From Prorocentrum cordatum (Eukaryota), in contig CAUYUJ010000061.1 in NCBI GenBank assembly GCA_963575745.1, positions 62,001-118,857 of the forward strand: a DNA stretch of 56,857 nt, read 5' to 3'. Under the pieces are notes generated by a model. It was not told the DNA's origin and made no database searches. It saw only the letters and a list, made by a program, of their open reading frames with translations. Below are positions 1 through 52,982 of this stretch, piece after piece. Made by a program: the position numbers and the translations under genes. Positions within the stretch are counted from its first letter, which is position 1; each line of letters begins with the position of its first letter.

Positions 1-671
1 CTACAGTTCTGGTTCTCACATGAATCGATTCGAAGAGATCATGCGCGTCCGTCTGTCGAATCCAGAGCTCGAGACTTGGTCTGCTGCCCGAATTAGGTCT
101 GCGAAACTATTGTATTGTTCGAGTCATCCTGAGAGATGCTCTCGGTTTTCTGTACTTAACTCGGGCTGTAGGGGGGCTCCAGCGCTGGTAATGACAGGAG
201 TCGATTCGCAGACATGAGACGCGTCCGCCTGTCGCATTCAGAGGTCAAATAATATTCACTATAAGTCAGAATGTTGGTAGGTGCTGTCGGTTTTCTCAAC
301 TTAAGTCGAGCTAGGAAGCTCTACGAGTTCCCCGGCGGTAACCTGGTTGAGCAGAGCTTACCTCCTGCTCAGCCTGGCCTCACCGCTGGGGCCCCCCTCG
401 TCTCGAGCTGCATTGTGCAGTAGGGAGTCTTCGGTTCCACATACTGTACACGGTGCTTCAGAGTCTGTTTTGCCTGAGTACCGCGGGTGCACATTTCAGA
501 TTGCTTCTCAGTATTGCTCCAGTGGTGGGGAACTCTCAATACTTTGGGATTGATTCTTGCCAGAGCTTGTCAGTTTTGCTCCTTGTGCACTTTTCTGTGG
601 ACTCTGTTACACGAGTGTTCATTGAGGTTGGCCACAACATACAACTCCGTCGCACGAGTGTCCATTCGAGT

Positions 672-1793
672 ATGGCGCTTCCAATGTCGGGCAGCCGTCG
701 CAAGAGGGAAGACGAGGGGGCTGATGACATGGACGCTGAGAATCAACTAGATGCTGATATCCACGAATTGGCTTTCGACGAAAAGAATCCCATGCAACAA
801 TTCTTCAACATGGGGAAAGCGCAACTGCAGCAGCAAAGAATTACTGACCGCAAGGTGACAGGCATGGTTAATGATATGGCTACCATGCAACGGCGGCAGG
901 ACAGTGCTGAACGACGAATGGCTGAAGGCCAGGCTCAGATGGATCAACGAATGACAGATCTTGAGAAGCAGGTTTTGGAGCTCAAGTCTCATTCTGCTGC
1001 AGGTTCTGGGGTATCCACGGGTGCTACTTCTGGTGGCTTTGGGGGTGAGGCGACTTGGCCAAACGAGGCCAGGCGTCCATTCCGAGCCTTCAATCCAGAG
1101 TGGATCGATTTTCGTGGATGGGTGGTCGACTGGAAGAATCCGATTCGACGGTCAGAACAAATGATTTCAGATCGTGACGTTGGCATTCTCATTCACAACT
1201 TGAAGATGAGCCTCCCAGAGGATGACCGTGCAAAGATTGATGAGCTTGGCACGCTTCGTATGAATGGGAATCGTCCTAACTTCGCAGACTTCCGCATCAA
1301 GTTTACCACTGGTACTGAGTCAGACGTGCTCTGGAGGTGCAAAAAGTTTTGGGATGAAGCTCTGATCCCGCCTGAGGATCGAACTGAGGAGCAAAGGTCT
1401 CGAGCCCGTCCGACGCCACAGGACCTTTTCAAAGACATGGACAACAGACCGTGTGCGGCTGGAGGCTCCATTCGGATCAAGACACAGGCACCGCCATGGA
1501 AAGAAGACCACATCAATGCTGTTGGCAGATTCCATGGTGTTTGGCGCGATACGGTCATTGCGAAGAATCCTGAAACGACAATGAAGATTAAGGGAGTCCC
1601 TGGGAGTGGAAAGGGGGTCAGTGTGATGTGGACCATTCCCCCATGTCTCCGTACCAAAAGAAGCATGGAGCTGGCCAAGTGGAAACAGGATACGGGCACT
1701 TGGACTGTTGATCAGACGGTCTGGAACGAAGTTGTCATGACATACGGCATCGCCACGACCCATAAGGAAATGGAGGATGCACTCGGACAATGA
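672..1793 (+). CDS. LINE-A ORF1 (coiled-coil, putative nucleic-acid chaperone)
   Basis: The frame is open from 453 and the first plausible ATG is at 672. There is a heptad-like segment VTGMVNDMATMQRRQDSAERRMAEGQAQMDQRMTDLEKQVLELK followed by a mixed alpha/beta region. It lies directly 5' of the RT ORF. Function is inferred from position and by analogy to LINE ORF1p. Confidence 0.75.
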   Translation: MALPMSGSRRKREDEGADDMDAENQLDADIHELAFDEKNPMQQFFNMGKAQLQQQRITDRKVTGMVNDMATMQRRQDSAERRMAEGQAQMDQRMTDLEKQVLELKSHSAAGSGVSTGATSGGFGGEATWPNEARRPFRAFNPEWIDFRGWVVDWKNPIRRSEQMISDRDVGILIHNLKMSLPEDDRAKIDELGTLRMNGNRPNFADFRIKFTTGTESDVLWRCKKFWDEALIPPEDRTEEQRSRARPTPQDLFKDMDNRPCAAGGSIRIKTQAPPWKEDHINAVGRFHGVWRDTVIAKNPETTMKIKGVPGSGKGVSVMWTIPPCLRTKRSMELAKWKQDTGTWTVDQTVWNEVVMTYGIATTHKEMEDALGQ

Positions 1794-1817
1794 GGGTGCT
1801 GCGAGAGATCCAGAAGC

Positions 1818-4800
1818 ATGGCTCTCGCTACTCTCGCGGCAGGCACACTCAATGTTGCGAGAGCTGGGCGGCTCGAGTCTCGGGCATACGCTATTCTACG
1901 AGCACTACATGGGGTAGGCTTAAATGTTGTGGCTTTGCAAGAATGTCAAAACGTTGACTTCAATGACACCTTAATTCAGCGTCTGGGGTGGGATGCTGTT
2001 TCAAAAAGTACTTGCATGCGGGCAGTGGTGCTTCTCAAACGTCGCCACCTGCCCCACGTGATATGCTCTTATCAAGCAGATCGAGTTGCGATGATTGTTC
2101 ATCGATCGGGAGTTTGTTTCACTAGCGCTTATTTTGCTGATGCGTCTCATCCAGACGCTCCAGAGATATGCAGACGGATACTGCATGATGTACGCCGCCT
2201 GCATCGACAGGCTCAGGCCAACCATGGCCACCACTTTCGCTTGTTGCTTGCTTGTGATGCCAATGTGGAGCTCACGCCAGAGTTGGAGGTAGATGGGAGG
2301 AGGGTGACGGGACCAGGACTCAGAAGATCGAGGGAGAGGGGACTTGGTCGGAACGGGGCCATTGATTTGGAGGACAGGAGGGCCAAGGAGGTGTGCATGA
2401 GGGACCAGATTGAGGAGTTCTTGGAGGAGGAGGAGCTGGCTGCGATCAACACTTTTGAAGCACGGGTCCCGACCTACTGGCACTTTGGTGAGAGCGAGCC
2501 CACAAAGGTCTTAGATTACATCTTGGCGCCCAGGCAGTGGACAGTAAAAGATCTCTCGTACAGTTGGTTGCAGGACGGGCGCGTGGCACGTTTGAGCGAT
2601 CATGCAGTGATCAAAACCCTGTTGGCCCCAAGGGAACCCCAGGAGATGTACCGACACCAGGTTGTTCGGCCACACGTCACGGCACGCCGGGCATTCGAGT
2701 CCCACAGAGAGGAGTTCTGTTTCAGAGCGTTGGTGAACATTGGTATTGAGGCCACACGCCCTGAGGAGATCGCGAAGTCTTTACATCAGCATGCGTTGCC
2801 TTTGCTCAACCCGCCTTCCTCTGCGCATCGTGCACATGCTAAGTCCAAAGAGCTAGCAGATCTTCAGCATCAGTATCGTGCAGCCCGTGGGAATCGTGAT
2901 GAGAGAAAGCGCCTGAGGGAACTTATGAGGCCCCTGGTCAATGCAGATAGGCGTAGTGAGATCGAGTATACCTTCGCGAACCCTCGCAAAAGCAAGAAAG
3001 TGAATGCCAAGTCTCTGAAGATCGACGGGGAGATGACGGAGGATCGTAAGAGGTGGGTGGAGGAGGGGATGAAGCAGCACAGCTTGAACACGATGACGAG
3101 CGAAGAGGAGAGGATGAGGAACAGCGAGCTGGTATCAGACTTACGACGACGTGCACGAGCAGCTAGGGCACACAGCAGCAGCAGCACGATGCACGACATG
3201 CGCATGCAGCTCACGATGGGGGTGGTGAACGAAGCACGTGCACGATTGAGATCTGGCAAGAGCTGCGGTCCTGATGGGGTCAGCGTGGAGCTCTTGAAGG
3301 CTTTGGCGTGGCGAGCTGTTCGCCAGATCTTCCATGTGTTTCGGGATATCTTTGATGGTCATCGTCGGTCACCTGATTGCTGGAGAGAGGTACTCATCAC
3401 GCTGATGCCCAAGCTTGTGAATCTAGATTCGCTCACACAAACACGCAATATAGTTGTACAGAACACGTTAGGAAAGTGGTACCTCACCTGTGTTACTATC
3501 CTTATCGAGAGGCATGCTGAACAGTACATGGGGCGATTGGGCTTGTATGGATTCGCACAGGATCGGAGGACGTGGGAAGTAGCGGGACCCCTTAAGGCCA
3601 TCTCACAGCATGCGAGCGTATGGGGGAAAGATAGGAAAGCGTTCTTCTGTTCATGTGATATAGCACGAGCCTTCGACCATGTTAAGCTCACTACCTTGGC
3701 ACGCGCGATGCACATGCTTAACATACCAGTACAGCTACAATATGCTATGATCGAGCCCTTAACTGACACGACGGGCACGCTCACGTTCGAGGGCCTGGAG
3801 TTAGGTGGGGTACGATGGGATCGCTCTCTCAGAACGGGGGGTACCGAATCTCCGCTGTGCTTTAACTTGGTGGTGTTGGCCATGTGGGCGGAGGTCATAG
3901 AGCGGTGGGATAACGAACGTATAGGTGTGGAGATCCCGTACAGCAACATGCACGACATGACGCGCGCACATATTTACAATCATGCGATATGGGCAGATAA
4001 CATATATCTCGTGGCCAGTACATCGGCTCAGATGCAGCTGATGATCAACACACTTACTCACGCTTTACGTACATGGGAACTAGAGTGGAAGTCAGATTCA
4101 CTTGAATCGATGGTGGTGGGCGACCGCGATACCACTACTTTCTTTGCTGATATCCAGGGGGTGCAGGTCCCATTCAAGTCAGTCTCTCAGCTGAATGTGT
4201 TGGGAACGGTCGTCTCGCAGCAGTACGGGGGCACGCACGAAGACATACAATTTCGGGTTGAGTGTGCACGACGCGCGTTTTATGGGCAAGCTAAGTATTA
4301 TCGTTGTCGTGCTCTCCCTCTTCGTAAGCGGTATCGACGGTATCAGAGCCTGGTACAGAGTGTATTAGCATACGGTCTGGATACATGTACGCTGGACCCT
4401 GAAGGTGTTCGATTGCTTCATACCTTTGAGGGCAGATGCCTACTGGCCATGCATTGTCGACGGAAGCCTGCGGGACAAAGATGGGAGGTCTGGAAGCCCG
4501 ACATGCTTGACACAGCGAGGGCTTCTTTCTGCTCGCTGGGATTTCCTAGCATCGTCCAGATCGTGGCGTGGAAGAGTTGGAGTGTCGCGCATTCGGTCAG
4601 CACGGTTTATGGCAATTTTGACTTCACAAATCCTGGGCCTCCCCGGTGGAGAGGCCCAGGTTCAGGAGTAAATTGTGAGGATGGGGTCTCGAGCGGCTCC
4701 CAGCACAATGATGGCGTCGACGGCCGACGTGTTGCACGCAAGATTGAGCCACATCCTGATACCACGAGACGTGCATTCGTTGATTCTCGCACGGCACTGC

Positions 4801-5840
4801 TTTGTACACACAAGACTTGGGAAGCGCACCGCATGGCCCTCACAGAATGTCTCCGCTGTCATGGAGATCGTAGGCGCGCCTCTGAAGGAAAACGGCTGCG
4901 TGCTGGAGGGGATAGTGTTGGGCAGCGGACTTGGCAGTACCCGTACATACAGATTCATGGGGATGAATGGTGGGAGACCTTCCGACCAGGATATGCCACA
5001 TTTCTGCAGACATGGGAAGCACTTTTACGCACGTATGGTAGGCCTAAGATATTCGAGTACTTCTGCACGAATTGGAAACATGTACCAGGAGGAGTTGTTG
5101 GGAGAGAATGTAAGGAGGGAACAGGAAGGAACGAGGAGGCGACGGAGGAGGAGAACATGAAGCAAGCAAGACGTTTGGCGATCATCAATGAACGGGAAGC
5201 TGTGTTTGATATTATGTCGAACGGAGTTGGCATTGAGATCAAGGGAGACTCTTTGCTGGTTCAGAGCTGGCTTACGGGGCGTTGGCGTTGTCATAATCGT
5301 GCATATCGTGAGCGTGTACACAGGTGTGTCAACGACATGTACGCACTTAGCTTATCACACCGAGCACGGGCATCGAACGTTGGGCGAGACATATTTGTAC
5401 ATGAATTTCGTGAAGCAAACACCCGAGCAGACGAACTTACTCATTTGGCCAGAGATGGCCACACATTTCATCATAACTATTGCCATCGATATCCTTTCGA
5501 ACGAGACTCTTTAAAGGTAGTCGCCTGTCGTGGAGGGTACGACGGGGGAGTGTGCAGCAAGGGCAGTGCGTGCGGTTACTGGATGCAGATTGGCTATCTC
5601 AACATGTCTTCGCGGGCGTCTCGGCATGGAGTGTATTCTACACGATACTCCCCTTACCCGACCTCTTCTTCTCTACATTATCATGCTGACACACCGTTGA
5701 TTTGGAGAGACGCTGCTGCTGCTGCTTGGTTGGAGCCAGGCGCCACGATCACCGAATGTGAGTTGTCCGCTGCCGAAGCATTGACACGTGCCATACGCAT
5801 ACAGCTTCAGCAATTTGATGACAGCGATTTTGCTTCTTGA
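1818..5840 (+). CDS. LINE-A ORF2: APE endonuclease - reverse transcriptase - permuted RNase H (1340 aa, intact)
   Basis: APE motifs: GTLNV, ALQEC, CDANV, VLDYIL, LSDHA. RT motifs: KSCGPDGV, YGFAQDR, DIARAFDHV, RTGGTESPLCF, WADN (3990-4001), VLGT. RNase H motifs: GDS (5244), REANTRAD (5409-5432), YDGG (5538), TECEL (5751). Confidence 0.95.
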   Translation: MALATLAAGTLNVARAGRLESRAYAILRALHGVGLNVVALQECQNVDFNDTLIQRLGWDAVSKSTCMRAVVLLKRRHLPHVICSYQADRVAMIVHRSGVCFTSAYFADASHPDAPEICRRILHDVRRLHRQAQANHGHHFRLLLACDANVELTPELEVDGRRVTGPGLRRSRERGLGRNGAIDLEDRRAKEVCMRDQIEEFLEEEELAAINTFEARVPTYWHFGESEPTKVLDYILAPRQWTVKDLSYSWLQDGRVARLSDHAVIKTLLAPREPQEMYRHQVVRPHVTARRAFESHREEFCFRALVNIGIEATRPEEIAKSLHQHALPLLNPPSSAHRAHAKSKELADLQHQYRAARGNRDERKRLRELMRPLVNADRRSEIEYTFANPRKSKKVNAKSLKIDGEMTEDRKRWVEEGMKQHSLNTMTSEEERMRNSELVSDLRRRARAARAHSSSSTMHDMRMQLTMGVVNEARARLRSGKSCGPDGVSVELLKALAWRAVRQIFHVFRDIFDGHRRSPDCWREVLITLMPKLVNLDSLTQTRNIVVQNTLGKWYLTCVTILIERHAEQYMGRLGLYGFAQDRRTWEVAGPLKAISQHASVWGKDRKAFFCSCDIARAFDHVKLTTLARAMHMLNIPVQLQYAMIEPLTDTTGTLTFEGLELGGVRWDRSLRTGGTESPLCFNLVVLAMWAEVIERWDNERIGVEIPYSNMHDMTRAHIYNHAIWADNIYLVASTSAQMQLMINTLTHALRTWELEWKSDSLESMVVGDRDTTTFFADIQGVQVPFKSVSQLNVLGTVVSQQYGGTHEDIQFRVECARRAFYGQAKYYRCRALPLRKRYRRYQSLVQSVLAYGLDTCTLDPEGVRLLHTFEGRCLLAMHCRRKPAGQRWEVWKPDMLDTARASFCSLGFPSIVQIVAWKSWSVAHSVSTVYGNFDFTNPGPPRWRGPGSGVNCEDGVSSGSQHNDGVDGRRVARKIEPHPDTTRRAFVDSRTALLCTHKTWEAHRMALTECLRCHGDRRRASEGKRLRAGGDSVGQRTWQYPYIQIHGDEWWETFRPGYATFLQTWEALLRTYGRPKIFEYFCTNWKHVPGGVVGRECKEGTGRNEEATEEENMKQARRLAIINEREAVFDIMSNGVGIEIKGDSLLVQSWLTGRWRCHNRAYRERVHRCVNDMYALSLSHRARASNVGRDIFVHEFREANTRADELTHLARDGHTFHHNYCHRYPFERDSLKVVACRGGYDGGVCSKGSACGYWMQIGYLNMSSRASRHGVYSTRYSPYPTSSSLHYHADTPLIWRDAAAAAWLEPGATITECELSAAEALTRAIRIQLQQFDDSDFAS

Positions 5841-6663
5841 GGGTGTGTTATCCCTCCGCCCTCCTGGGCTCGGGAATCATTTTCAAGATTAGCCAAGTTA
5901 CATGACACCTCAGCCCGCCTCCGTGGGTAGGTGCTCGTTTCACTGCTGCTCAAATGCCTAGCTGCGTAGCTGACACGGGCTGCGCTGAAGACCAGCGCCT
6001 CGCCAGCCCGCGTAAACACAAAAACCAAGGTTGACGGTTTACCGCCGGCGCCCAGTAAGAGTAATTCGAAAACGCTGGCAGGCTAGTTGGCTCGAAAAAT
6101 CTCGACTGAACTTTTCACAACTTTGGCTCGGTTGAAAATTATGTTCTCGAAATTCAACAATTCGTTAGAGCTCTAGTATTTTTTCCCGTGATATTCGATC
6201 TTATTCCCGCTCGCCATCTTGATCTCAGCTCGATCGGGTGGGTATTACTATCGAAAAGCGTCATGGCGGGATCGGCCGTTCCGAGTCATTTTGTCACGCG
6301 CTGTCGGTTTTCTCAAGATAACTCGGGCTTCAGGACAGCTACAGAGCTAGTAAGCACATCTGATCGATCCAGAATGATCAGGCGCGTTCGCCTGTTGAAC
6401 CCAGAGGTCTGAACTCGGTCTGCTAGCCGAGCCAGGTCCGCAAACCTATTCGTATTATTCGAGTAATCTCGACAGACGCTCTCGGTTTTCTGTACTTAAC
6501 TCGAGCTACAGGACAGCTACAGAGCTGATGCGTACAGAATCTGATTCAGCATCATCAGTGGCCGTTCTCTGTTGAATCCAGACCTCTGAACTCGGTCTGC
6601 TGCCCGATCTAGAATCGCGAAACTATTCGTATTGTTCGAGTCATCTTGAGAGATGCTGTCAGT

Positions 6664-7724
6664 AACTCGTAGAGTTTCCCTTAGCAAGTCATTGCTGGAC
6701 GCTTAAGAGTAATTCCGGGGCGCTGGAGAGCTAGTTGGCAAGAAAAATCTCGACGGACCTTTTGGTGACTTTGGGTCGGTTGAAAATTTTGTTCTCGAAA
6801 TTCAACAATTCGTTTGAGCTCTAATTTTTTTCCCGTGATATTCGATCTTATCCCCGCTCGCCATCTTCATCTCAGCTCGATCGGGTGCCTTTTACTGCCA
6901 AAAAGCACTCCGGCGGGATCGGCCGTTTCGAGTCATCTTGATACGCGCTGTCGGTTTCTCAAGATCCCTCGAGCTTCAGGACAGCTCCAGAGCTGGTAAG
7001 CACAGCTAATCGATCCACAGTGATTAGGCGCGTTCGCCTGTTGAATCGAGAGGTCTGAACTCGGTCTGCTAGCCGAGCTAGATCTGCAAACCTATTCGTA
7101 TTATTCGAGTCATCGTAGCAGACGCTCTCAGTTTCCTGCACTTAACTCGAGCTGTAGGGCAGTTACAGAGCTCATGGTCACAGAAATCGATTGGGAATCA
7201 TCAGGCGCGTTCGTATGTTCTATCGCTAGCTCTGAACTCGGCCTCCTGCCCTAGCTAGGTCCGCGAAACTATTCGTATTGCTCGAGTCATCTTGAGAAGT
7301 GTAACTCGTGCTGGGGGAGGCTACAGTGCTGCTGGTCACAGATATCGATTTGGAGACATCAGGCGCGTCCGTCTGTCGAACCGAGAGCTCGGAACTCGGT
7401 CTGCTGCTCGAACTAGCTCCGCGAAACTATTGTATTCTTCAAGTCATCCTGAGAGCTGCTGTCGGTTTCTGCACTTAACTCGGGCTGTAGGGGGGCTGCA
7501 GGGCTGGTAATCACAGGAGTCGATTCACAGACATCAGACGCGTCCGCCTGTCGCATTCAGAGGTCTAAACTCGGTTTGACACTGTTCGTTTTTTTGCCAG
7601 AGTCATCTTGAGAGGTCTGGCGGGCTGAAATTATCTGGATTTTTTTCCACATTATATACTGTCAGGAAGCTCTACGAGTCCCCCGGCGGTAACAAAGGTT
7701 GACGGTTTACCGCCGGCGCCCAGT
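6664..7724 (+). mobile_element. Complete family-A Helentron-like copy nested in another copy
   Basis: The 5' subTIR is ACTCGTAGAGTTTCC (6665-6679) and the 3' subTIR is GGAAGCTCTACGAGT (7665-7679). The hairpin spans 7683-7716. Removing the copy restores the host repeat GATGCTGTC.GT|TTTCTGCACTTAAC. Confidence 0.8.
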
Positions 7725-9614
7725 TTTCTGCACTTAACTCGGGCTGTGTGGGGGGGGGCTGCATGGCTGGTAATCATTGGAATCGATTTGGAGACATCAG
7801 GGGCGTCCGCCTGTCGAATCGAGAGCTCTGAACTCCGTCTGCTGCCCGAACTAAGTCCGCAGAACTATTCGTATTGTTCGAGTCATCCTGAGGGCTGCTG
7901 TGGGTTTCCTGCACTTAGCTCGGGCTGTAGGGGGGCTGCAGGGCTGGTAATCACAGGAATCGATTCAGAGACATCAAACGTGTATGCAGGGGTCTGAACT
8001 GGGTCTGATACTCAAGCTAGGTTTGCCAAACTATTCGTATTGTTCGAGTCATCTTGAGAAGTGCTGTCGATTCACGCACGTAACTCGGGCTGTAGGAGAG
8101 CTACAGAGCCTGTACAGAACACAATCCAGAAGCATCGGGGGCGTTCGGCTGTTGCATCCGAGAGGTCTGCAATTGCTTGGGCTGAAAGTTTATTTTTTCT
8201 GTGTAATATTTTCCGACATTACATGTTGTCAGGAAGCTCTACGAGTCCCCCGGCGGTAACAAAGGTTGACGGTTTACCGCCGGCGCCCAGTTGGCCCAGC
8301 CGGCCGAGGCGGACGATGTGGCAACTTTTGGGTGGTTTTGCAATTTTTTTGAAAGATATTTGACAGTTCATTTTGAGAAAGCAGATTTTTACTCCGAGCA
8401 TTGAGATATAAACTTTGTTCCCTGAGCAGCTCAGCCCTCTAGAGTCATTTTCAGTACCAGTTCATTTGGAGGAACCGACTTCATGTTGACTCCGAAAAAT
8501 CTCAACTTGAAGTTTTTCTAGAAAAGCTCCCAGAAGCTCCCGCTTTGATGCTGAGCTTTCTCACGGATGCAAGGAGCTCTACGAGGTTCCCGGCGGTGAC
8601 CAGATTGACGGTTCACCGCCGGCGCCAGTTCCGGGGCGCTGGAGATCTAGTTGGCAAGAAAAATCTCGACGGACCTTTTGCTGACTTTTGGTCGGTTGAA
8701 AATTTTGTTCTCGAAATTCAACAATTCGTTTGAGCTCTAATATTTTTCCCGTGATATTCGATCCTATTCCCGATCGCCATCTTGATCTCAGCTCGATCGG
8801 GTACCTTTTACTGCCAAAAAGCACTCCGGCGGGATCGGCCGTTTCGAGTCATCTTGATACGCGCTGTCGGTTTTCTGAAGATAACTCGAGCTTCAGGACA
8901 GCTACAGAGCTGGTAAGCACAGCTAATCGATTTAGAATGATTAGGCGCGTTTGCCTGTTGAATCCAGAGGTCTCAACTCGGTCTGCTAGCCGAGCTAGGT
9001 CCGCAAACCTATTCGTATTATTCGAGTCATCGTAGCAGGCGCTCTCGGTTTGCTGTACTTAACTCGAGCTGTAGGGCAGTTACAGAGCTCATAGTCACAG
9101 AAATCGATCGGGAATTATCGGGCGCGTTCGGCTGTTCAATCGAAAGCTCTGAACTCGGCCTGCTGCCCGAGCTAGGTCCGCGAAGCTATTCGCATTGTTC
9201 GAGTTATCTTGAGAAGTGCTCGCGGTTTTCTGCACCTGGTCACAGAAATCGATTTGGAAACATCAGGCGCGTCCGTCTGTCGAACCGAGAGCTCGAAACT
9301 CGGTCTGCTGCTCGAACTAGCTCCGCGAAACTATTGTATTATTCAAGTCATCCTGAGAGCTGCTGTCGGTTTCTGCACTTAACTCGGGCTGTAGCGGGGC
9401 TGCAGGGCTGGTAATTCCAGGAGTCGATTCACAGACGTTAGACGCGTCCGCCTGTCGCATTCAGAGGTCTGAACTCGGTTTGACACTCGAGCTGGGTTCC
9501 AAACTGTTCGTTTTTTTGCCAGAGTCATCTTGAGAGGTCTGGCTTGGGCTGAAATTCTCTTGAATTTCTTTCCACATTATATACTGTCAGGAAGCTCTAC
9601 GAGTCCCCGGCGGT

Positions 9615-9642
9615 AACAAAGGTTGACGGTTTACCGCCGGCG
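9615..9642 (+). repeat. 28-bp target-site duplication of LINE-B (left copy; right copy 14239-14266)
   Basis: AACAAAGGTTGACGGTTTACCGCCGGCG is identical at both ends of LINE-B. The first A's overlap the A-rich tail, so the exact length is +/-2. Confidence 0.9.
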
Positions 9643-9659
9643 AGAGGTGAGATGGGTGA

Positions 9660-9845
9660 GATGGTCCTCCTGTCAGCTATGTGTGGGGCTACCCTTCGGC
9701 CACGACGCCGAAGACGGATGGAGTATGCATTGCCGTGTTTGATCCTAACTTGGGGTGGAAGGTTGACGCCGAGCTGCTGCGTAAGGTCGATGACAAGTTG
9801 GATTGCGAGGTCTTTCTGGCCAAGCTCAACTTTCGTACCTGGTGA
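9660..9845 (+). pseudogene. 3' remnant of LINE-B ORF1 (not in the ORF track)
   Basis: Translates as DGPPVSYVWGYPSATTPKTDGVCIAVFDPNLGWKVDAELLRK...RTW*. By eye this aligns with the LINE-A ORF1 C-terminus GKGVSVMWTIPPCLRTKRSMELAKWKQDTGTWTVD. It is in the same frame as ORF2. Confidence 0.6.
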
Positions 9846-9863
9846 AGGTGCCATGGCGCCATC

Positions 9864-15329: not shown

Positions 15330-15419
15330 CATCAGGCGCGTTCGTCTGTTCATCGGAGCTCTGAACTCGGCCTGCTGCCCAAGCTAGATCTGCAAAACTA
15401 TTTGTATTGTTTGAGTCAT

Positions 15420-16462: not shown

Positions 16463-16957
16463 CTTGAGAAGTGCTCTCGGTTTTCTGCACTTAACTCGTG
16501 CTGGGAGAGGGCTACAGTGCTGCTGGTCACAGAAATCGATTTGGAGACATCAGGCGCGTCCGTCTGTCGAACCGAGAGCTCGGAACTCGGTCTGTTGCTC
16601 GAACTAGCTCCGCGAAACTATTGTATTATTCAAGTCATCCTCTGAGCTGCTGTCGGTTTCTGCACTTAACTCGGGCTGTAGGGGGGCTGCAGGGCTGGTC
16701 ATCACAGGAGTCGATTCACAGACATCAGACGCGTCCGCCTGTCGGATTCAGAGGTCTGAGCTCGGTTTGACACTCGAGCTGGGTTCCAAACTGTTCGTTT
16801 TTTGCCAGAGTCATCTTGAGAGGTCTGGCTCACATTATATACTGTCAGGAAGCTCTACGAGTCCCCCGGCGGTAACAAAGGTTGACGGTTTACCGCCGGC
16901 GCCCAGTAATTCCGGGGCGCTGAAGAGCTAGCTGGCAAGAAAAATCTCGACGGACAT

Positions 16958-17359
16958 ACCTCGTAGAGCTCTTCGACATCGATGAGCTAGAGGAATTCCG
17001 GCGCGGGGTGGAGCTAGTTGGCCCACCCGGCCGAGGTGGACAATGTGACAACTTTTGGGTGGTTTTGCAAAGATTTGAAAGACATTTGACAATTCATTTT
17101 GAGAAACCCGATTTTTCGCACCTGTAGTGGGTTTTGCCGCGTCTGCCAGTAAAATTTTCAGGTCTGTAGGTGTAGTATTACTATTAATACACTTGGCGGA
17201 ACCGACGTTCAGTAAAAGCAGGAAAAACGTGTTTTTTTTGAGTTTTTTCTTTCTCGCTCCAGAAGCTTTCTCTCCATGTTCTGACGATCGCCGTGCAAGA
17301 AAAGAGCTCTACGAGGTTCACGGCGGTAGCCAGGTTGACGGTTTACCGCCGGTTCCAGT
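16958..17359 (+). mobile_element. Complete family-B Helentron-like copy (~0.4 kb)
   Basis: Perfect 16-bp subTIRs: ACCTCGTAGAGCTCTT (16958-16973) and AAGAGCTCTACGAGGT (17302-17317), followed by the hairpin. It is inserted in the T-run of a family-A copy (CGGACAT|TTTGATGAC). Confidence 0.8.
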
Positions 17360-20052: not shown

Positions 20053-22947
20053 GTTACGGTATCAAGCACCTCATTGTGCAGGGGCGGATATCTGAGGACA
20101 GGGAGGAGTGGGTGGAGGAGATCAGAGCACATACCAGACAGAGATATACTTCGGAGGAGGTCAGAGGACGGGATATGGAGATGTTGGAGGAGTTGAGGAG
20201 GGATGCGCAACATAACCTATGTGACGGGTACTGCACTGAGGGACTGACAATGGCGGTGGTATGCCAGGCACGGTCACGTCTCAAGTCCAGGCGTGCCACT
20301 GGTCCCGACAGGCTGCCTTGTGAAATACTCAAGGCATTGCCGTGGGCGACTTTGCGTGGCGTAGCTCGGATGTTTGATGAGATATTTCGCTTGACACGGC
20401 AGTATCCGCAGGACTGGAGGCAGATTTTGATCGCCTTCATGCCCAAGCTGCCGAGCTTGACATCACTGACAGATGCACGGTACCTCTGTCTGCAAAACAG
20501 TCTCAGCCGTTGGTATTCTGCTTGTGTGGTGATCCTGGTGGAACAATTTGTGTTTCGGGCTGGCCTCGTGGGACCCTTGGGAATCTATGGCTTCCAGGAG
20601 GGACGTAAGACGGTGGAAATTGTGGGGGCCCTCAAGGCTCTGGCTCAACATGGGGACATCTGGGGAAAGGATCAGACGGTCCATATCGCTAACGCCGACA
20701 TCAAACAAGCGTTCGACCATTGCAGCCTTCAAAACGCCAAGCGAGCTATGGGCCATGCCAATATTCCTGCCTATCTCCAGTATGCTTTGCTTGCACCGCT
20801 GGTTTGCACTACGGGGTCGTTAGTTGTCGAGGGTATGGCCATTCACGACATCAACTGGGACGTCTGTATACGGACGGGCGGCCCTGAGGGGCCTCTTCTC
20901 TTTAACCTTATCATATGTGCCATGTGGGGACCTATATTTCGGGATTGGGACAGTAGAGGAGTGGGGTATGTGCTGGAGGGCGTCTGTGGAGAGTATGAGC
21001 GACGGACAGTCGTGAACCACTTTGTGTGGGCGGAGAACTGCTACCTTGTCTCTGCCTTCTCAACTGTGCTGGCTCAGATGATGCACGATCTAACCCTACC
21101 ACTACATGACTGGGGGATGAGATGGAAGGATAGCAGCCTGTTGTATATGACATGTGGGGAAAATGCGAGAGTGGATGGTGACGGACATATTCTTGCCAGT
21201 GAGGATTTGTGTATACCTGCGTGCTCGAGATATCAGGACTTTAGACTTCGACGGGTGTGCAGAATGAAAGTATTGGGTCATGAGATTTTCTCCACCTACC
21301 TAGTGCCCGCTCATCCTGATGTGGAATATCGCATCAAGGAGGCTCGTGCTTGTTTCATTGGTCAGTCGGATTTCTTTCGTAACAGAGCGGTAGCTGTTCG
21401 TGATAAGTTTTGTCGTTATCAAGACAAGGTGCAGAGTATGGCGTTTTATTGTATAGAGACATGTGCTGCTGATACTTCCTCGCTACACATGCTCAATGCC
21501 TTCGAGGGATGGTGTTTGTGCCGTATGTTTCGGCGGCCGAGGAGGGAGGGGGAGACTATGGCGGACTGGAACCGACGACGGTACCACGAGGCCAGAGAGC
21601 AATTTCGATCTTATGGATTTGCGAGTTTGGTGCAGCGATTTCTCCGTATGGTGTGGAACTCCGCTAAGGATGCTGCAGATTTCATTTCTGTATTGTGTAC
21701 TGCTTCACATGAGGAAATATCTTCGGCGCAACGTACGTGGAGAGATCACCACATGACGACGGTTGCATGCGGTCCACTGTGGGACAGGCTCAGGACGGAT
21801 GCGTCGGAATGCCTGCGGAGTATGTTTCACTTCGAGGAGGCTTCGCAGCTAAAAAGGAGACATGCTAGCTCAGGTCGAGCTATTGGCCAGAGATGCTGGC
21901 TATTTTCTTTCTGTGAATTCTACGGACTCAAATGGTGGGAGTCCTTTGTGCCGACAGATGCTGCGTATGTTCAGTTCTGCGAACGCATGTGTACACGGAC
22001 GATGCCGAGTTATTTTCGGAAAAGAAAAGGGTGCGGTACAACAGGTGGGGCCCTGCAGGAGGTACATACTATCACACAAAACGACCTACGCACTTATGGG
22101 GCTCAAGAGGGCACTGCGGCTCTCAACGACAAACTGGCCAAACGTATCGCGTTACAAGATATGAAGGAGGTTGAGTACGACCTCGACTCTTTTGGGATCC
22201 CTTTGTACATTTCTGGGGACAGTCTTCTGGTGGTGTCTTGGCTTCAGGGTGTCTGGAGGGTGCTTAGTCGTACATATCAGGATAGGATCAACAGAATGAT
22301 TAACCAACTTGACAACATGTGTCAGAGGTTTGGAATTAGGCCTGCCTGTCATGGGAGGGAATTTGTCGACCACACATATAGGGAATGGAACACGCGTGCA
22401 GATGTACTCACTCATACGGCCCGTGTCGGGCCACCAGTGATTCGAGATAGGATAGGGCTTTACGCCCCTCAGTTACAACAGGTGTTTCGCGTTTGTGCCA
22501 TCAGAGCTGGATTCGATGGTGGCGTCTTGCGACGGCGTAGGAGTCGGGTGCTGGATAGATGTTGGACGGATATCGAGGCTCTCAAGGCAGCCACTCAGCC
22601 ATGGGATTATATGGACGGAGGTGTATAGTGTGGCGTTCTCGATTGATCCAACTTCAACAGTGACTGATGCCGAGATCTCGGCCGTTGAGCATACGATTAT
22701 AATCTTGCCGCGGGTTGTACAAGCGTATTTCGGACAGGATATGATGTGATATTGATTGTGCTCACTCACGCCATGCCTTTGTTTGTCGTGTGTGTGTGTG
22801 CTTGACCTCTCATCCTCCTAATAAGAGTTGGCTTTCGCCTCTGATCGTTTGGATCGGTGAGGCTTCCGCCTACTCCCGATGCGCCCGCTCCTTGCTTCCG
22901 ACTAGGCTGGAAAGCCTGCACAGTCGACCGCAAAGTCCGCAAAAAAG
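20053..22947 (+). mobile_element. LINE-C: 5'-truncated non-LTR retrotransposon; 3' end at the hairpin loop
   Basis: It starts abruptly after host CAGCTACAGAGC (20052). It ends CCGCAAAGTCCGCAAAAAAG, followed by AAAGGTTGACGGTTTACCGCCGGCGCCCAGT (to 22978). Confidence 0.88.
20055..22749 (+). pseudogene. LINE-C ORF2 fragment (RT + permuted RNase H; APE missing; frameshift near 22527)
   Basis: RT motifs: RATGPDRL, YGFQEGR, DIKQAFDH, RTGGPEGPLLF, WAEN (21027-21038). RNase H motifs: SGDS, REWNTRAD, GFDGG. Homology then continues in another frame (CDGVGVGCWID...TDAEISAV, ORF 22495-22749). Confidence 0.85.
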
Positions 22948-25900
22948 AAAGGTTGACGGTTTACCGCCGGCGCCCAGTAATTCCGGGGCGCTGGAGAGCT
23001 AGTTGGCAAGAAAAATCTCGACGGACCTTTTGGTGACTTTTGGTCGGTTGAAAATTTTGTTCTCGAAATTCAACCATTCGTTAGAGCTCTAGTATTTTTT
23101 CCCGTGATATTCGATCTTATTCCCGCTCGCCATCTTGATCTCAGCTCGATCGGGTACCTTTTACTGTCAAAAAGCACTGCGGCGGGATCGGCCGTTTCGA
23201 GTCATTTTGATACGCGCTGTCGGTATATTGGACTTAACTCGAGATATAGGACAGCTACAGAGCTGGTCAGCACACCTTATCGATCCAAAATGATCAGGCG
23301 CGTTCGTCTGTTGCATCGAGAGGTCTGAACTCGGTCTGCTAGCCGAGCTAGATCCGCAAACCTATTCGTATTATTCGAGTCATCTTGATAGGCGCTCTCG
23401 GTTTTCTGTACTTAACTCGAGCTATAGGACAGCTACAGAGCTCATACTTACAGAAACCGATTCAGAATCATCAGTGGTGATTTTCTGTTGAATCGAGAGC
23501 TCTGAACTCGTTCTGCTGCCCGATCTAGAATCGCGAAACTGCTTGTATTGTTCGAGTCATCTGGAGAGGTGCTGTCGGTTTTCTGGACTTAACTCGGGCT
23601 GTAGGGGGGGCTACAGTGCTGGTGGTGACAGCAATCGATTTGGAGATATCAGGCGCGTTCGCCTGTGGAATCCAGAGCTCGGAACTCGGTCTGCTGCCCA
23701 AACTAGGTCCGTTCGTATTGTTCGAGTCATCCTGAAAGATGCTGTCGGCTTTCTCCACTTAACTCGGGCTGTAGGGGGGCTGCAGGGCTGGTAATCACAG
23801 GAATCGATTCGGAGACATCAGACGCGTCCGCCTGTCGCATTCAGAGGTCTGAACTCGGTCTTATACTCGAGCTGGGTTTGCCAAACTATTCGTTTTGTTC
23901 GAGTCATCTTGGGAGGTGCTTTCGATTAACGCACGTACCTCGGGCTGTAGGAGAGCTACAGAGCTCGTGCAGAAGAGAATCCAGAAGCATGGGGGCGTTC
24001 GGCTGTTGCATCGAGAGGTTTGAAACCGCTTGGGCTGAAAAACCATTCGTTCTCTGCAATTTGTTTTTCGACATTATATGTTGTCAGGAAGCTCTACGAG
24101 TCCCCCGGCGGTAGGAAAGGTTGACGGTTTACCGCCGGCGCCCAGTTGGCCCACCCGGCTGGGGCGGACAAATTTATGACTTTTGGTCGGTTTTGCGGGA
24201 ATTTGAAAGATATTTAACCATTTATTTTGAGAAAACAGATTTTTGCGCGTCGCATTGGCATATAAATTCCTCTCTGACAGCAGCTCAGCTCTCCCGATGC
24301 ATTTTAGTATGAGTTGACTTCCGGGAACTGAGCGAATATGAACATCGAAAAAATCGTAAATGAAGTTTTTGGAAATTTTTTTTTTTATGATTCTACTTCG
24401 ATTCTCAGCACTCTTACCAGTCTAAGGAGCTCTACGAGATTCGCGGCGGTGACCAGGTTGACGTTTCACCGCCGGCGCCAGTTTCACTTTAGGCAAAATT
24501 TTGAAATTCGTTTTGAGAACCGGTATTTTGCTCACGTGTAGTACGTTATGCCGCGATTGCTAGTTAAATTCTCAGGTCCATAGCTGTAATATTACCATCA
24601 AAAGACTTGAGGGAACCGTCGCGGGTTTGAGACATCTCGACACCAAAAATATGGATTTTCGAACAATCTCAAAAAATTCACTCTACTTCGATTCACTCTA
24701 CCAGTGTGAGGAGCTCTACGAGGTTCCCGGCGGTCACTAGGTTGACGGTTCACCGCCGGCGCCAGTGGGAACTTTGCGTCGGTTTGGCAAAAATTCTGCG
24801 AGATTTGAAAATTCGTTTTGAGAACCGGTATTTTTCGCACCTGTAGTGGGTCATGCGGCGTCTGCCAGTGAAATTCCCAGGTTCGTAGCTGCATTATTAC
24901 TATCAAAACACTTGCAGGAACCGACTTTGGATGAAAACCGAAAATGTTGTTGTTTCGAGTTTTTCAGCTCTCGCCTGAGAAAGCTCCCTCCATGTGTTCT
25001 GAGCACCTCTGCGCGAGAGAATGAGCTCTACGAGGCTCCAGGCGGTAACCTGGTTGACGGTTTACCGCTGGCGCTATTGTTTTAGAGATGATGAGTCTTC
25101 TTTTAACTTCACTCGGGCTGCGGATGAGCTAGAGAGCTGTTCGGCACAGCAATGTGAAGGCAATATTCAGGCGCGCTATTTCAAAGTATGTAGAGGCTTG
25201 AAATCAGTCTACTATGGCCGAACAGCGATTCGTACTCTGTATTTTTTTTCGAGATGGTCCCGGCGGTGACGAGGTTGACGGTTCACCGCCGGCGCCAGTT
25301 GGCCGACCGTGAATGTCCGAAAATATTAATGATCACGCGCGATTGACGATAGTGGTAAGCAATCTGTGTTCCTGAACGTGTAAGAGGTTATAGCGCGTTG
25401 GCCTGTCGAATTCTGAGGTTTTAAGTGCGATATAAGTAAAATCGAAAGAATGATGTCGTATTACAAAACATTTTTTATATTTATGTCAAGCTAATATTTA
25501 CTTGAGATTCATCCTCAGCTCCGAGCACTATTTCGTGATTTCAGAGCTCTACGAGGGTCCTGGCGGTCACCTGGTTGACGGTTTACCGCCGGCTCCCAGT
25601 CGATGAGCTAGATGAATTCTGGCGCAGAGTGTCGACCCGGCCAGAACGGACAATGTGACATCTTTGGGTCGGTTTTGCTAAAATTTGAAAACTTCTGAGA
25701 AAGCAGAGGTCTTGCACCTGTAGTGGGTTATGCCGCGTCTGCCTGTGCAATTTTTAGGTCCGTAGCTGCAATATTATTATCAAAACACTTAGGCGGGACG
25801 GAGTTTTGACAACAAACAGAAAAACGTAATTTCTCGAGTCTATGAACTCATGTAGGAGAAAGCTTCTCCCATGTGTTCCGAGCAGCGCCGCGCGAAGAAA

Positions 25901-26237
25901 GAGCTCTACAAGGCTTCCGGCGGTGACCTGATTGACGGCTTACCGCCGGATCCCAGTGAGAAAGATATTTGTCAATTCATCTTCACAAAGCAGATTTTAC
26001 GCTGAGCATGTGCATATAAGCTTTGTTCTCAGAGCAGCTCAGCTCTTCCGAGGGATTTTACTATCGGTTGACTTCCAGGAACCGGCCTCATATTGACATC
26101 AAGAATGGAAAAGTGAAGATTTTAAGAACATCTTCTGCGCAGTTGTCTGCTTAGTTTCTGAGCAGTCTTATACGTGCCAAGAGCTCTACGAGTTTCCAGG
26201 CGGAGACCAGGTGGACGGTTCACCGCCGGCGCCAGTT

Positions 26238-29200
26238 GTCTGAGAGAGTTGACGTTCAGTGATCATAAGCTGTTGCAGTTGTGGCTACCAGATTGTTATT
26301 CGCAGTTCCCTCCTAGGAACATGGCGCGCTTGACGGCGTGGCGGATGAATCTAAGTACCGAGATCGTGCAGAGGGGGTGTTTCGAGCAGTCCGTGATGAC
26401 GTATAACCGCTATGCGGAACTCTCTGAGGACCTAGATGAGAACCCCTTCGAAATCTAAGCAAGGCCGCCATCGTCGACGGTGCCCATCAGACCTTGGACA
26501 GCCCCAGCGAGTCCCAGAAGATTTGCCCTGTCGGAGGAGCAGTTCAGGGTTAAGGATGAGCACTACCAGATCAGGAAGCTGTATAAGAGGGGGGAGGTGA
26601 AAAGGGATACCTACATGATCAGTATGAGGAAGTGGAAAAGAGTGCGTAGAGATATAGCCTGCGCGCGTCTGGAGTTCTAGAACCACGAGGGGGTCAAGAG
26701 GAAGCCCGACACCAGGCATATGCTTATCGAGGGTGAGATGACTCAGAATGTGAGTAGGTGGGAGAAGGCGCTTCGGAAACAGTCTGGATCGATATTCGAT
26801 TGTTCGCCATCGGGAGGAGACTGAAACATGCCTTGGAAAGTTGCGCAGTCTTTGCCGAGATCACAATCGACACTGCCCGATCGACATGGGCTCCTTCTCC
26901 AGGCGCGTGCACGGTTGAGGCAAGGACGGGCTGCAGGCTCGGACGGTCTACCGGCGTCTGTTCTCAAAGCTCTGCCGTGGGATGCCCTGCGGCAGATCTT
27001 ACATTCCTTGCAATGCTGGTTCAGGCGTGAGATCGTTACCCCACAGTCATGGCGACATAGTCTTGTGAGCATCATGCTTAAAAGGACGAAGGCGAGAAGT
27101 TTCGACGAAACGAAAGCTTTGTCAATGTTAGCTGTTTTGAGCAAGTGCTTCAGTTGTTGTTTAACGATCTTGACTGAAAGCCGCCTCAGAACGGTTGCAC
27201 CCGACGGGTGCCAACTATAGAACCAGACGTTGTATATGCACTCCTTCGAGGGTTACGCCAATAATGCTGCTACTATATCATTCCAACAGTGCGCAGTTGA
27301 AGGTATCCACTGGGACACCTGTATTCGGACGGGCAGCATGGAAGCTCCAGCTCTCTGGTTTGCAACATCTTTGTGCATGCTCAAACCTGCTGTGCAACGG
27401 TGGGAGGAGAGGAGATGCGGTATTGTTCTCAGTGAGGAAGGAGGGATACTTGTGAATAATATGCTGTGGTTGGACAATGTTGCGCGCGAAGCCGAGTCGC
27501 GGACGGAGTTGATTGATGTGTTGGAGACACTCACGGTAGATATCGCGAAGCACGGGCTTCGCTGGAAACTGAGTTCGATGGAGTACCTTGCGTGCGGAGA
27601 GAGAGATGACACGACGAAGCCGTTGGGGATGCCGTCGTTGACGTTTGAGGTACCACAGGTAACGAAATCAAATATCTGGGGAACGTGGCTTGACATCGGC
27701 TTTGCTGAAGATGATACCATTAAGTATCGATTGTGTGAGGCAAAGACAAGTTTGACAAGTTTGCTGTTTGACAGATCCTTCTATGTGAGCCCATTCATTC
27801 GATTAACGCAGAAGTTTCAAACATATGCTAGCACAGTGTTCAGTCGCGTTTTGTACGGCATCGTATGTGTAACGCGTGATGCACATACGCTGTTGATGAG
27901 TTATGTGGAGGAGGGGGTACTTCTATCGGCAATGCGTCGTCGACAGAAGAGGCCCGCTGAGGACTGGGCTGAACATTGGAGAGCCCAATTTCGACATGCA
28001 CGTTCGTTACTGGTTTGTCCCTGCCGCTCTTCGCTGGTGCAACTTACTTTATATAAGCAGTGGTGTTTCGAAACAAAAACATACTATATGCACGGTGTGC
28101 GATGTTGACGAGGTGACTGGGGTGGTGGGCAAGGGGACTTTGACGGACCCTGAGGTGAGGAACATGGATGTCTCATGCGGCACTCCGTTATCAGTGCACC
28201 CCCCTTCATCCTAACCGCCTTGAGACGAGTCGGTCAAACCGACGTCGTGCGATTACCAGAATGAGGAGACGTGCTGTGGGCCTACCTGACTCCCCTGAGT
28301 CCAGTGCTTCTTGCTCCGAAACGCGCGCGTTGTCAGCTTCTTCGGGGCAGGCCTTTTGCTTCTATGCAGAGCTGCCTGTGTATGTTGCATGCGTCTGGTC
28401 TTTGGACGGAGCGCTTGGGCGAATTCTGCAGATCCTTGGGTTCCCGCAAGGCCAGGGCCATTACAAGGGCCCGCTGTGGGGGAACTACAATGGGGTTAAC
28501 GCAGTGGAGGTCACTCTTCGAACTCACCAAGGGGCCCCTGCGGACTCAGGATATGATCTGGACTGCAATTGGTTGGAACGATTGCTTAGATAGTACCTCG
28601 AGAGAGCTCCAGTTAGGCCATGTCTTGGATCACTGTCTTATACGTGATCATTTTTCGGGAAGGTATCGCGGGGAGGTGGATGAGGAGGAGATGACGGAGG
28701 ACCAGCTGCAAAATAATCTGGATAGACAAACGAGAAGTCTGGCCGCTCTGAATGAAGACGAGACTCGCTGGCGACTCAACCCTGATGGCATCTGCTTGGA
28801 GATGAGACGTGACGACCAGATTGTGGTCAGATGGCTAAATGGAAAATATCGTTGCCACAATGAGATAGATGCGCACCACCAAGAGCATGCAAAGCTGCCT
28901 TCAGGATATGAGCAAACAGATTAATATTTTGAGTCCTGAATTGGGAAGGGATATTTGGAAGTGGGGGTATCGGGAGGGGGACGAGGAGGCAGACACTGAA
29001 ACACACATTGCCCGTGAAGGAGGTATGACTTCTGAGATACGGTGGGATCATAGTTTTCTTGACTCATCGAGCTCGATGTGTGCACGTGCTGTGAGAGGCT
29101 GTTTTGATGGCGGTAGGTGTGATGTAGGTGTCTCATGTGGCTGGGTGATTGATTTTGATTGTTTTCGCTACTCCTTCCTCCTTCTCCCCCCCCTAGACTC

Positions 29201-29403
29201 CAGGACTGTCGGTGGCAGAATGGCGTCGGCCGCCGCGCGTTTATGATCCCGTCTCATTGTGCAATCACGCAGGCTGGCTTAGCATCCGCTGAAAGTCTTC
29301 TTAGGGGTATCTCAGAGCTTGCTTCTCGGATTAGATTCGGAGTCGCTACTCTCAGTAGTTCTGCCTCCGTGGAGGCTCGAACCTACGCCGCAGAACCGCG
29401 GGG
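26238..29403 (+). pseudogene. LINE-D: decayed, 5'-truncated non-LTR retrotransposon of the same group, flanked by hairpin-motif copies
   Basis: Fragments occur in several frames: FSDHKLL (end of APE), RAAGSDGLP, RTGSMEAPALW, WLDN (27467-27478), VRWLNGKYRCHN, YREGDEEAD, CFDGG. The D..AFD block appears deleted near 27220. A degenerate motif is present on both sides (26207-26237, 29404-29436). Confidence 0.82.
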
Positions 29404-29436
29404 CCAAGGTTGACGGCGTACCGCCAGCTCCCAGTT

Positions 29437-37329: not shown

Positions 37330-43020
<5,691 letters not shown>

Positions 43021-52980: not shown

Positions 52981-52982
52981 CA

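Follow-up and report, generated by a model that had tools for sequence, protein, structure and literature searches.

Four diverged LINE retrotransposons share an insertion position in the terminal hairpin loop of a Helentron-like transposon

Target-specific long interspersed nuclear elements (LINEs) are natural models for programmable, RNA-templated DNA insertion, and only few target specificities are known for LINEs with an apurinic/apyrimidinic-type (APE-type) endonuclease. Human L1, with the site TTTT/AA, inserts promiscuously and is not known to carry an RNase H domain. Target-specific LINEs are familiar from R1, TRAS and SART (R1 clade) and others; these are of the APE type and insert into repeated targets with a precise 3' junction. 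Tx1L from Xenopus laevis (Tx1 clade) has a highly specific endonuclease with one site in the apparent DNA transposon Tx1D (PMC1950540). Here, we describe a stretch of 56,857 nucleotides from Prorocentrum cordatum (assembly GCA_963575745.1, contig CAUYUJ010000061.1, positions 62,001 to 118,857, forward strand; this whole stretch is referred to as the window). It contains four APE-type LINEs, LINE-A to LINE-D, whose 3' ends lie in the loop of the terminal hairpin of an abundant repeated element that resembles the Helentron-type non-autonomous elements (HINEs).

There are clear parallels to the known systems. As with Tx1L and Tx1D, an APE-type LINE parasitizes a multicopy and harmless DNA-transposon target (PMC1950540), and with R1, TRAS and SART the LINEs of the window share the precise 3' junction, whereas the kind of target differs. 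In contrast to Tx1L/Tx1D, the target is the terminal hairpin loop of a Helentron-like element and is common to four lineages at 23-34% identity, and the protein of the second open reading frame (ORF2) has a C-terminal RNase H-like domain and the sequence ADN in motif C of its reverse transcriptase (RT). The initial annotation of the window stated that no description of such a system was known. This is too strong as far as the concept is concerned, because Tx1L already targets Tx1D (PMC1950540), and the principle of a LINE residing in a DNA transposon is therefore already known. New are the Helentron-type terminal hairpin loop as target, the retention of the same site down to 23-34% identity, and the clade itself. 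We found no publication containing the motif string or describing a target-specific LINE in a Helitron or Helentron hairpin (supplementary files were outside the scope of this search). Next to Tx1L/Tx1D, the window would offer a second case of a retrotransposon that resides in a DNA transposon, in this case one with rolling-circle architecture.

Four LINEs at one position of a hairpin loop

The LINEs and the blocks of the host element form a cluster at window positions 1-29,436, and the repeat array as such spans the first 30-32 kb (G+C about 51%). The 3' end of the host element is a block of about 58 nt with the layout GCTCTACGAG-N5-CCGGCGGTAAC..GGTTGACGGTTTACCGCCGG-CGCCCAGT or, more fully, GAGCTCTACGAG-N5-CCGGCGGTAAC-AAA-GGTTGACGGTTTACCGCCGG-CGCCCAGT, the core of which is a hairpin. 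The similarity between copies ends sharply on both sides of this block, which is present 22 times in the array, always on the + strand. The exact hairpin pattern CCGGCGGTAA-N10-18-TTACCGCCGG occurs seven times in the window compared to zero times in 100 shuffles, and TTACCGCC occurs 24 times, whereas 0.65 occurrences are expected. If up to four substitutions are allowed, 22 right arms are found between 6029 and 29408, exclusively on the + strand. Eighteen of these 22 possess a left arm as well and represent empty sites (GGTAAC(A/C)AAGGTTGACGG), and the remaining four are preceded by the 3' untranslated region (UTR) and the tail of a LINE. Apart from the example given below, exact hairpin copies are located at 8250, 9607, 15288, 16421, 16866 and 19540, and folding is predicted for either strand of the hairpin (-11.8 and -13.6 kcal/mol).

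The array, the target and the four LINEs with their flanks are located as follows (TSD, target-site duplication):

1..32000, + strand: nested array of one non-coding HINE-like element, with 5' modules, 177-bp internal tandem repeats and 3' hairpin blocks
7683..7716, + strand: intact empty target hairpin, as an example; DNA fold -11.8 kcal/mol, z -1.6
318..350, + strand: 5' flank of LINE-A; sub-terminal inverted repeat GCTCTACGAG, left arm CCGGCGGTAAC (332-342), then CTGGTTGA
351..6024 (5' bound 343/351), + strand: LINE-A, apparently full length; 5' UTR, ORF1, ORF2, 3' UTR 5841-6019, A5 tail 6020-6024
6025..6056, + strand: 3' flank of LINE-A; remainder of the loop, right arm and host terminus (CCAAGGTTGACGGTTTACCGCCGGCGCCCAGT)
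9617..9642, + strand: 5' copy of the LINE-B TSD ((C)AAAGGTTGACGGTTTACCGCCGGCG), inside an intact hairpin (9607-9640); identical to 14241-14266
9643..14240, + strand: LINE-B with intact ORF2 of 1386 aa (9864-14024); 3' UTR with two-tier stem-loop, tail CAAAAA(C)
14241..14272, + strand: 3' flank of LINE-B; 3' copy of the TSD and terminus of the host element
20052..22947, + strand: LINE-C, 5'-truncated, starting at about aa 400 of the LINE-A ORF2; open frame 20010-22628, RT motif C WAEN, tail CAAAAAAG
22948..22978, + strand: 3' flank of LINE-C; AAAGG, right arm and terminus
26183..26236, + strand: intact variant block directly upstream of LINE-D; a diverged TSD of about 31 nt or the end of a neighbouring element
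26237..29403, + strand: LINE-D, old, 5'-truncated and frameshifted; tblastn pieces over about aa 257-1343 of LINE-B, no A-tail left
29404..29435, + strand: 3' flank of LINE-D; degenerate right arm and terminus (CCAAGGTTGACGGCGTACCGCCAGCTCCCAGT)

All four LINE bodies of the window end within about 4 nt of one loop position, GGTAA|C(A/C)AAGG, and have the same orientation as the motif. The junctions are found at 6024/6025 in LINE-A (..ACACAAAAA|CCAAGGTTGACGG, the flank starting with CCAAGG), at 14241/14242 in LINE-B (..CTCAAAAAC|AAAGGTTGACGG, starting with AAAGG), at 22947/22948 in LINE-C (..CGCAAAAAAG|AAAGGTTGACGG, likewise starting with AAAGG) and at 29403/29404 in LINE-D (..CGCGGGG|CCAAGGTTGACGG, starting with CCAAGG). 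Each of the junctions is ambiguous by about 3-5 nt owing to the run of A, and all of them fall into a stretch of 3-5 nt on the 5' side of the loop. With 22 motifs of 3 nt each in 13,100 nt of host DNA, the chance of such a hit is p=0.005 per insertion and about 6e-10 for all four. The 3' ends named in the initial annotation (6022, 14238, 22947 and 29403) are right to within 0-3 nt.

Contigs of sequencing runs that share DNA with the window were inspected as well. A contig of run X9 follows the 3' UTR of LINE-A to exactly 6056, which is the end of the block. A contig of run X2 crosses the LINE-A junction by 12 nt (to 6036) and continues with 639 nt unlike the window. A further copy of LINE-A, inserted in a variant hairpin, would produce such a contig. 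Both contigs lend modest additional support. Among the best-supported read joints and loose ends listed, the latter being dominated by satellite, none belongs to an empty LINE-A or LINE-B site or lies at the junctions, and we draw no conclusion from this.

The 5' junctions are much less uniform. LINE-A is bracketed by the two halves of one hairpin and possibly by a TSD of 6-10 bp (CTGGTTGA compared to 6025-6034). LINE-B has an exact TSD of 25-26 nt plus 22 extra nt at its 5' junction. At its 5' junction (about 20051/20052), LINE-C adjoins a 177-bp host repeat, and host body and left arm are missing, i.e. about a kilobase of the target has been deleted. The hairpin-motif sequence that had been reported on the 5' side of A, B and D is indeed present (left arm at 332-342, hairpin at 9607-9640 and block ending at 26236, respectively).

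A fixed 3' junction together with a variable 5' junction is the product expected of target-primed reverse transcription (TPRT). Since exactly this combination is seen here, the earlier proposal that the LINEs integrate into the hairpin loop is supported within the limits of this one window, and we consider it probable that an APE-type LINE clade integrates by TPRT at the 5' side of the loop in the terminal hairpin of an abundant HINE-type transposon. The read depth climbs from 5' to 3' along LINE-A and LINE-B in four public runs, which fits many 5'-truncated copies.

LINE coding sequence is found at four places of the window only, all on the + strand (351-5837, 9846-14021, 20001-22725 and 26228-29320), in a tblastn search with ORF2 of A, B and C, ORF1 of A and five database relatives as queries. 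This bears out the earlier observation that no comparable LINE ORF was recognized elsewhere in the window. ORF1 of LINE-A likely starts at 672 and ends with a TGA stop codon at 1791-1793, and ORF2 (1818-5840) encodes 1340 aa with APE, RT and RNase H-like domains. Both ORFs are in one frame, with one TGA and 24 nt between them (1791-1820), so that expression of ORF2 by read-through or re-initiation would be possible. Left of 9663, contigs of the runs X2 and X5 diverge from the window, which indicates that the LINE-B of the window is 5'-truncated. The ORF2s of A and B are intact, as had been claimed, but only A looks complete.

Over the full length, the identity between the ORF2 proteins is 25% (A/B), 34% (A/C) and 33% (B/C), and LINE-D shares 22-32% with the others, in pieces. 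The description of the four ORF2s as clearly different families rather than copies therefore needs a correction: they are no copies of each other, but because the ORF2s share 23-34% identity along their whole length they belong to one clade and are not unrelated families. Judged by these sequences, A to D go back to four separate insertion events, each by a different, deeply diverged member of one old clade. For ORF1 of LINE-A, neither a homologue nor a Pfam family was found, and the AlphaFold model from the single sequence (predicted local distance difference test score 43) is unusable except for helix 40-108; this modelled long helix is a likeness to ORF1 of human L1. Searches for relatives of the LINEs gave 85 pattern matches in viral contigs and nine in prokaryote genome contigs, none of which was confirmed.

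The host transposon

HINEs themselves are not known to make a TSD. In the literature, they are defined by subterminal inverted repeats (subTIRs) of 12-15 bp, with 2-4 nt between the first copy and the 5' end and 38-60 bp between the second copy and the 3' end, by a palindrome at a distance of 8-35 bp from the 3' terminus, by tandem repeats that are often present in the centre and by T or TT as targets; the lack of a TSD is stated there for Helitrons and the proto-Helentron (PMC4067079). The host element of the window can be compared to this definition in some detail. It begins with (A/G)(A/C)CTCGTAGAGC, the reverse complement of the GCTCTACGAG in front of the hairpin. This repeat extends to a subTIR of 15 bp (ACTCGTAGAGCTTCC at the 5' side, GGAAGCTCTACGAGT at the 3' side), of which ACTCGTAGAGCTTCC is located 1-2 nt from the 5' end, and the complementary GGAAGCTCTACGAGT leaves 47 nt up to the 3' end. 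The 5' end is followed by a 5' module, 177-bp tandem repeats and the hairpin block ending with CCAGT, and the stem palindrome of 10 bp ends 8 nt before the 3' terminus.

Four nested insertions of the host element could be delimited together with their paralogous empty sites:

6664..7724, + strand: complete element E1, 1061 bp; 5' AACTCGTAGAGT.., 3' ..hairpin-CGCCCAGT; inside a 177-bp repeat, no TSD
14284..15329, + strand: complete element E2, 1046 bp; at GGGAAT|CATCAGG, no TSD; 34/34 nt compared to the empty site 7187-7220
15420..16462, + strand: complete element E3, 1043 bp; at GAGTCAT|CTTGAG, no TSD; 60/60 nt, 91.7%
16958..17359, + strand: element E4, 402 bp, with a second variant of the 5' module; in the 5' module of another copy, no TSD; 69/69 nt, 94.2%

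When the flanks of E1 are joined, they correspond to 20 paralogous empty sites; 13 of these matches contain no gap (58/58 nt and 96.6% in the best case). All four insertions have a gap-free empty site and no TSD; all four occurred after a T, and two of the four between T and T. We also considered the host units as retroelements similar to short interspersed nuclear elements with 5' truncation. This reading fails, because each interruption is a complete element with a gap-free empty site, and the seemingly truncated sequence is the remainder of an older copy.

The host shares subTIRs, a 3' palindrome, central tandem repeats and insertion at T or TT with HINEs, and differs by a longer stem, 10-12 bp compared to the 5-10 bp given for them (PMC4067079). 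Its sequence organization supports the view that the host has the architecture of a HINE, and by analogy it would be expected to move by a rolling-circle Rep/helicase. The assignment of the hairpin to the end of a rolling-circle-type transposon in the initial annotation agrees with a discrete element that has subTIRs and a 3' palindrome and lacks a TSD, although a Rep/helicase partner was not found. With regard to abundance, the summed contig depth in the four public runs reaches 2e4-2e5 for the host repeats, which makes the host a major satellite-like component of the genome. Along LINE-A and LINE-B, the majority of bins have depths between single digits and hundreds. Scans of the window with Rfam (gathering thresholds) and for tRNAs gave no match, and the motif therefore does not represent a known RNA gene.

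The orientation is the same in all 22 host blocks and in all nested host insertions (300-29440), i.e. there is a strong bias in self-nesting. A variant of the hairpin, GGTGAC..GTTCACC (8603, 24456, 24740, 25273 and 26210), has a G-C pair in place of an A-T pair of the stem, which is the sole compensatory change observed. Copies of this variant cluster at 24.4-26.3 kb with a spacing of 220-360 bp.

ORF2 enzymes, insertion mechanism and alternative explanations

From its sequence, ORF2 consists of an APE-type endonuclease, an RT and a C-terminal RNase H-like domain. In an alignment of 28 members of the clade, the APE residues D147, D233, D261 and H262 are invariant, while E42 and N149 are present in at least 90% of the sequences; in the RT, the motif A aspartate D614 is kept in at least 90% and the first motif C aspartate D727 is invariant. 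The profile of these 28 members finds human L1 ORF2p as the best solved-structure match (3e-77 over APE and RT, profile positions 3-697) and also matches R2 proteins (1e-48), the L1 endonuclease (9e-19), ExoIII (2e-14) and, at the C-terminal end, RNase H1 (9e-10). The likeness to L1 is a relation judged from solved structures only, and the structures of the R1Bm and TRAS1 endonucleases are not among the best 60 of 67 profile matches. LINE-A alone matches L1 ORF2p with very low identity (E 1e-5) and Pfam Exo_endo_phos only weakly, and there are RVT_1 matches at 1e-9, 2e-9 and 7e-5. The preserved catalytic residues and the profile matches to L1 ORF2p, L1 endonuclease and RNase H1 are in good agreement with the old APE-RT-RNase H lineage postulated before.

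Motif C of the RT deserves special attention. Among 86 aligned homologues drawn from the proteins P0001-P0151, it reads xADN in 59, including A and B, which lack the second aspartate, and xxDD in 26. The motif is located at window positions 3990-4001 in LINE-A, about 12020 in LINE-B and about 21100 in LINE-C, where it reads AEN. RTs of the ADN type apparently form a large group without the second catalytic aspartate that is undescribed, and no publication was found that joins WADN with reverse transcriptase.

Based on the junctions, the following course of insertion can be proposed. The APE domain would nick the bottom strand at 5'-CCGTCAACCTT(T/G)G^TTACCGCCGG-3' (CCTT(T/G)G^TTACC), which is the junction of loop and stem, and the freed T-rich 3' end would anneal to the A-rich tail of the RNA and prime cDNA synthesis. 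The structured 3' UTR would probably recruit the RT to its own RNA, and the break of the second strand would be imprecise. Presumably, recognition is brought about by the endonuclease itself, which might read the sequence, the shape of the hairpin or both, and the target specificity might be ancestral to the clade. As the LINEs enter at the junction of stem and loop, an APE-type endonuclease may here recognize its target by shape. One target kept to about 25% protein identity also means that several natural endonuclease variants are at hand for mapping how the target is read.

The 3' UTR ends of the four LINEs (5955-6024, 14171-14240, 22878-22947 and 29334-29403) have no sequence similarity to one another. 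In single folds, each of them is predicted to adopt a two-tier stem-loop of similar layout at a distance of 12-15 nt from the tail, with an outer stem that surrounds a hairpin of 5-6 bp and an internal loop on the 3' side (z -2.2, -2.1, -2.3 and -0.4). This modelled structure may serve as recognition structure for the RT. RNAalifold predicted no pairs for the four ends, which MAFFT cannot align.

Several findings weigh against the proposed integration of the clade into the hairpin loop of a HINE-type transposon. The evidence base is one window with four insertions, and the host repeat is about 1000 times more common than the LINEs, so that landing in the array is to be expected and only the exact position is informative. 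Covariation in the stem of the target hairpin is minimal (one pair, three cells), i.e. the stem is kept as sequence; in this test, the right arm was fixed by the search pattern itself. The catalytic competence of the ADN-type RT is assumed from its conservation, and motif C is not the canonical DD. A pairing of the LINE RNA tail with the right arm is unsupported for A (276 of 564 internal windows are as good) and for B (258 of 456); C (43 of 286) and D (6 of 313) perform better in this respect, but the four results do not add up to a consistent signal. None of the 120 metagenome loci discussed below contains LINE sequence (0 of about 125 motifs are LINE-filled), so that the association with LINEs is so far confined to the organism of the window and to runs sharing its DNA. 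As far as the host is concerned, its ends are (A/G)(A/C)CTCGTAGAGC (5' AACTCG) and ..CCAGT (..ACAT in metagenome variants) with insertion after T, which is not the signature of a canonical Helitron (5' TC, 3' CTRR, A|T target), and no Rep/helicase (Helitron_like_N, PIF1, helicase) was detected in the 69 tested of 82 ORFs of at least 180 aa on the short metagenome contigs or in 20 ORFs of the window.

The latter two points are also what speaks for an alternative in which the LINEs insert as proposed, but the host is no rolling-circle element and belongs to an IS200/IS605-like, Crypton-like or unknown class without TSD. IS200/IS605 elements, too, have a subterminal hairpin only a few nt away from where they are cleaved. 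However, since the features of the host fit the published HINE definition point by point, we regard this alternative as unlikely.

The insertions could also reflect a structural hot spot, where LINEs with a relaxed, L1-like taste for T-tracts or purines encounter the accessible hairpin loop of an abundant repeat in tolerant junk DNA. The endonuclease profile is indeed closest to the L1 endonuclease among solved structures, the nick deduced for the bottom strand, CTTT^G, is similar to the TTTT/AA consensus of L1 (PMC1950540), the host outnumbers the LINEs by far and the second-strand break is imprecise. All of this would be compatible with a hot spot, but it leaves unexplained why four of four insertions occupy one position of 3-5 nt in one orientation, why the many other T-tracts of the array, including longer ones on both strands such as TTTTTTTCC and TTTTTTTTTTTCCCG, were not used, and why lineages of 23-34% identity have this trait in common. 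A mere hot spot is therefore rather improbable.

Even less credible is an endonuclease-independent integration at existing breaks, with 3'-OH ends provided by hairpin or cruciform loops or by intermediates of host transposition. The predicted folding of the hairpin on both strands and the target deletion at LINE-C would be in line with it, but the catalytic residues of the APE domain are kept across the clade and the TSD of LINE-B is clean. Moreover, rolling-circle transposition would presumably nick the top strand at the element's terminus, 8 nt beyond the hairpin, rather than the bottom strand within the loop. The idea that the motif is the LINEs' own 3' end, or was carried along by 3' transduction, is suggested by the same 30 nt or so after all four elements, but can practically be dismissed, since no LINE adjoins the 18 empty sites of the window or the roughly 125 metagenome copies, A sits between two halves of a split hairpin, B duplicates 25 nt of the target as an exact TSD, and the right arm runs into the host terminus and then into host array (A, B and C) or unrelated sequence (D), so that the motif is target and not LINE transcript.

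The block in other DNA and remaining parts of the window

A scan of metagenomes with the right arm alone yielded at least 124 stretches, of which 120 loci (L001-L120) were examined. They contain 133 occurrences of the motif, about 125 of which are genuine, with left arm and sub-terminal repeat, in unrelated flanks. Only the block of 50-60 nt is common to the window and the metagenome loci, with 85-97% identity, although L003, L006, L115 and others share more of the host element at 72-89%. The loci come from more than 100 marine contigs with 34-63% G+C, and this conservation of the 3' block across contigs of such different base composition distinguishes the host from HINEs. Next to the large RT clade with ADN instead of DD, the 58-nt transposon end kept in this way is a by-product of our analysis. 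It suggests that the block, as judged from these copies, belongs to a very widespread or horizontally moving element. The block is often found next to cellular genes of an ordinary kind; some loci carry genes for pyruvate kinase, pantoate ligase, MOSC, PAPS reductase or short-chain dehydrogenase. Inverted pairs of the block occur in L008 and a mini-element of about 90 nt in L070, and in L011, L017, L021 and L098 the 3' end abuts the next 5' subTIR. The motif was absent from viral contigs (0 matches) and was found seven times in prokaryote genome contigs. Two of these matches are on contigs of one metagenome-assembled genome, one of which is the same metagenome contig as L004, and the other five, whose flanks were not inspected, are presumably due to chance.

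Since the LINE insertions lie inside a mobile element whose 58-nt end is kept across many marine eukaryotes, hitch-hiking is conceivable. An ancient clade marked by ADN might read DNA shape, namely the extruded terminal hairpin of Helentron-type elements, in place of a mere duplex sequence, and the LINEs could travel with their host within or between genomes. We regard this extended scenario as doubtful at present; if true, a retrotransposon lineage would co-evolve with, and hitch-hike on, a DNA transposon superfamily.

There are some further observations on individual copies of the block. In the window (25240-25300, with the copy at 25273) as well as in L075 and L112, an A- or T-rich run takes the place of the sub-terminal repeat upstream of the left arm. 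L110 (1-324) has a right arm without a left arm and could be the filled site of an unknown element. In L045, an ORF of 842 aa without match in Pfam or PDB is located beside the block, outside of the element.

Outside the array, an ERGIC_N domain (2e-13) in the open frame 47699-48460 is the only recognizable fragment of a cellular gene in the window, and this eukaryotic exon at 47.7 kb indicates that the window is nuclear DNA. The remainder is rich in repeats. GGA/GAG/CCT and CCGCGC simple repeats are found at 32.5-36.5 kb, followed by a degenerate trinucleotide repeat of the TGA type (37335-42509, about 5.2 kb) with 75% matches and a GC skew of up to 0.78. Further satellites are located at 45616-46392, 52374-53226, 53680-55271 and 56022-56857, with unit sizes of 73/146 bp, 36/73 bp, 20 bp (in both orientations) and 197 bp (at 96% identity).

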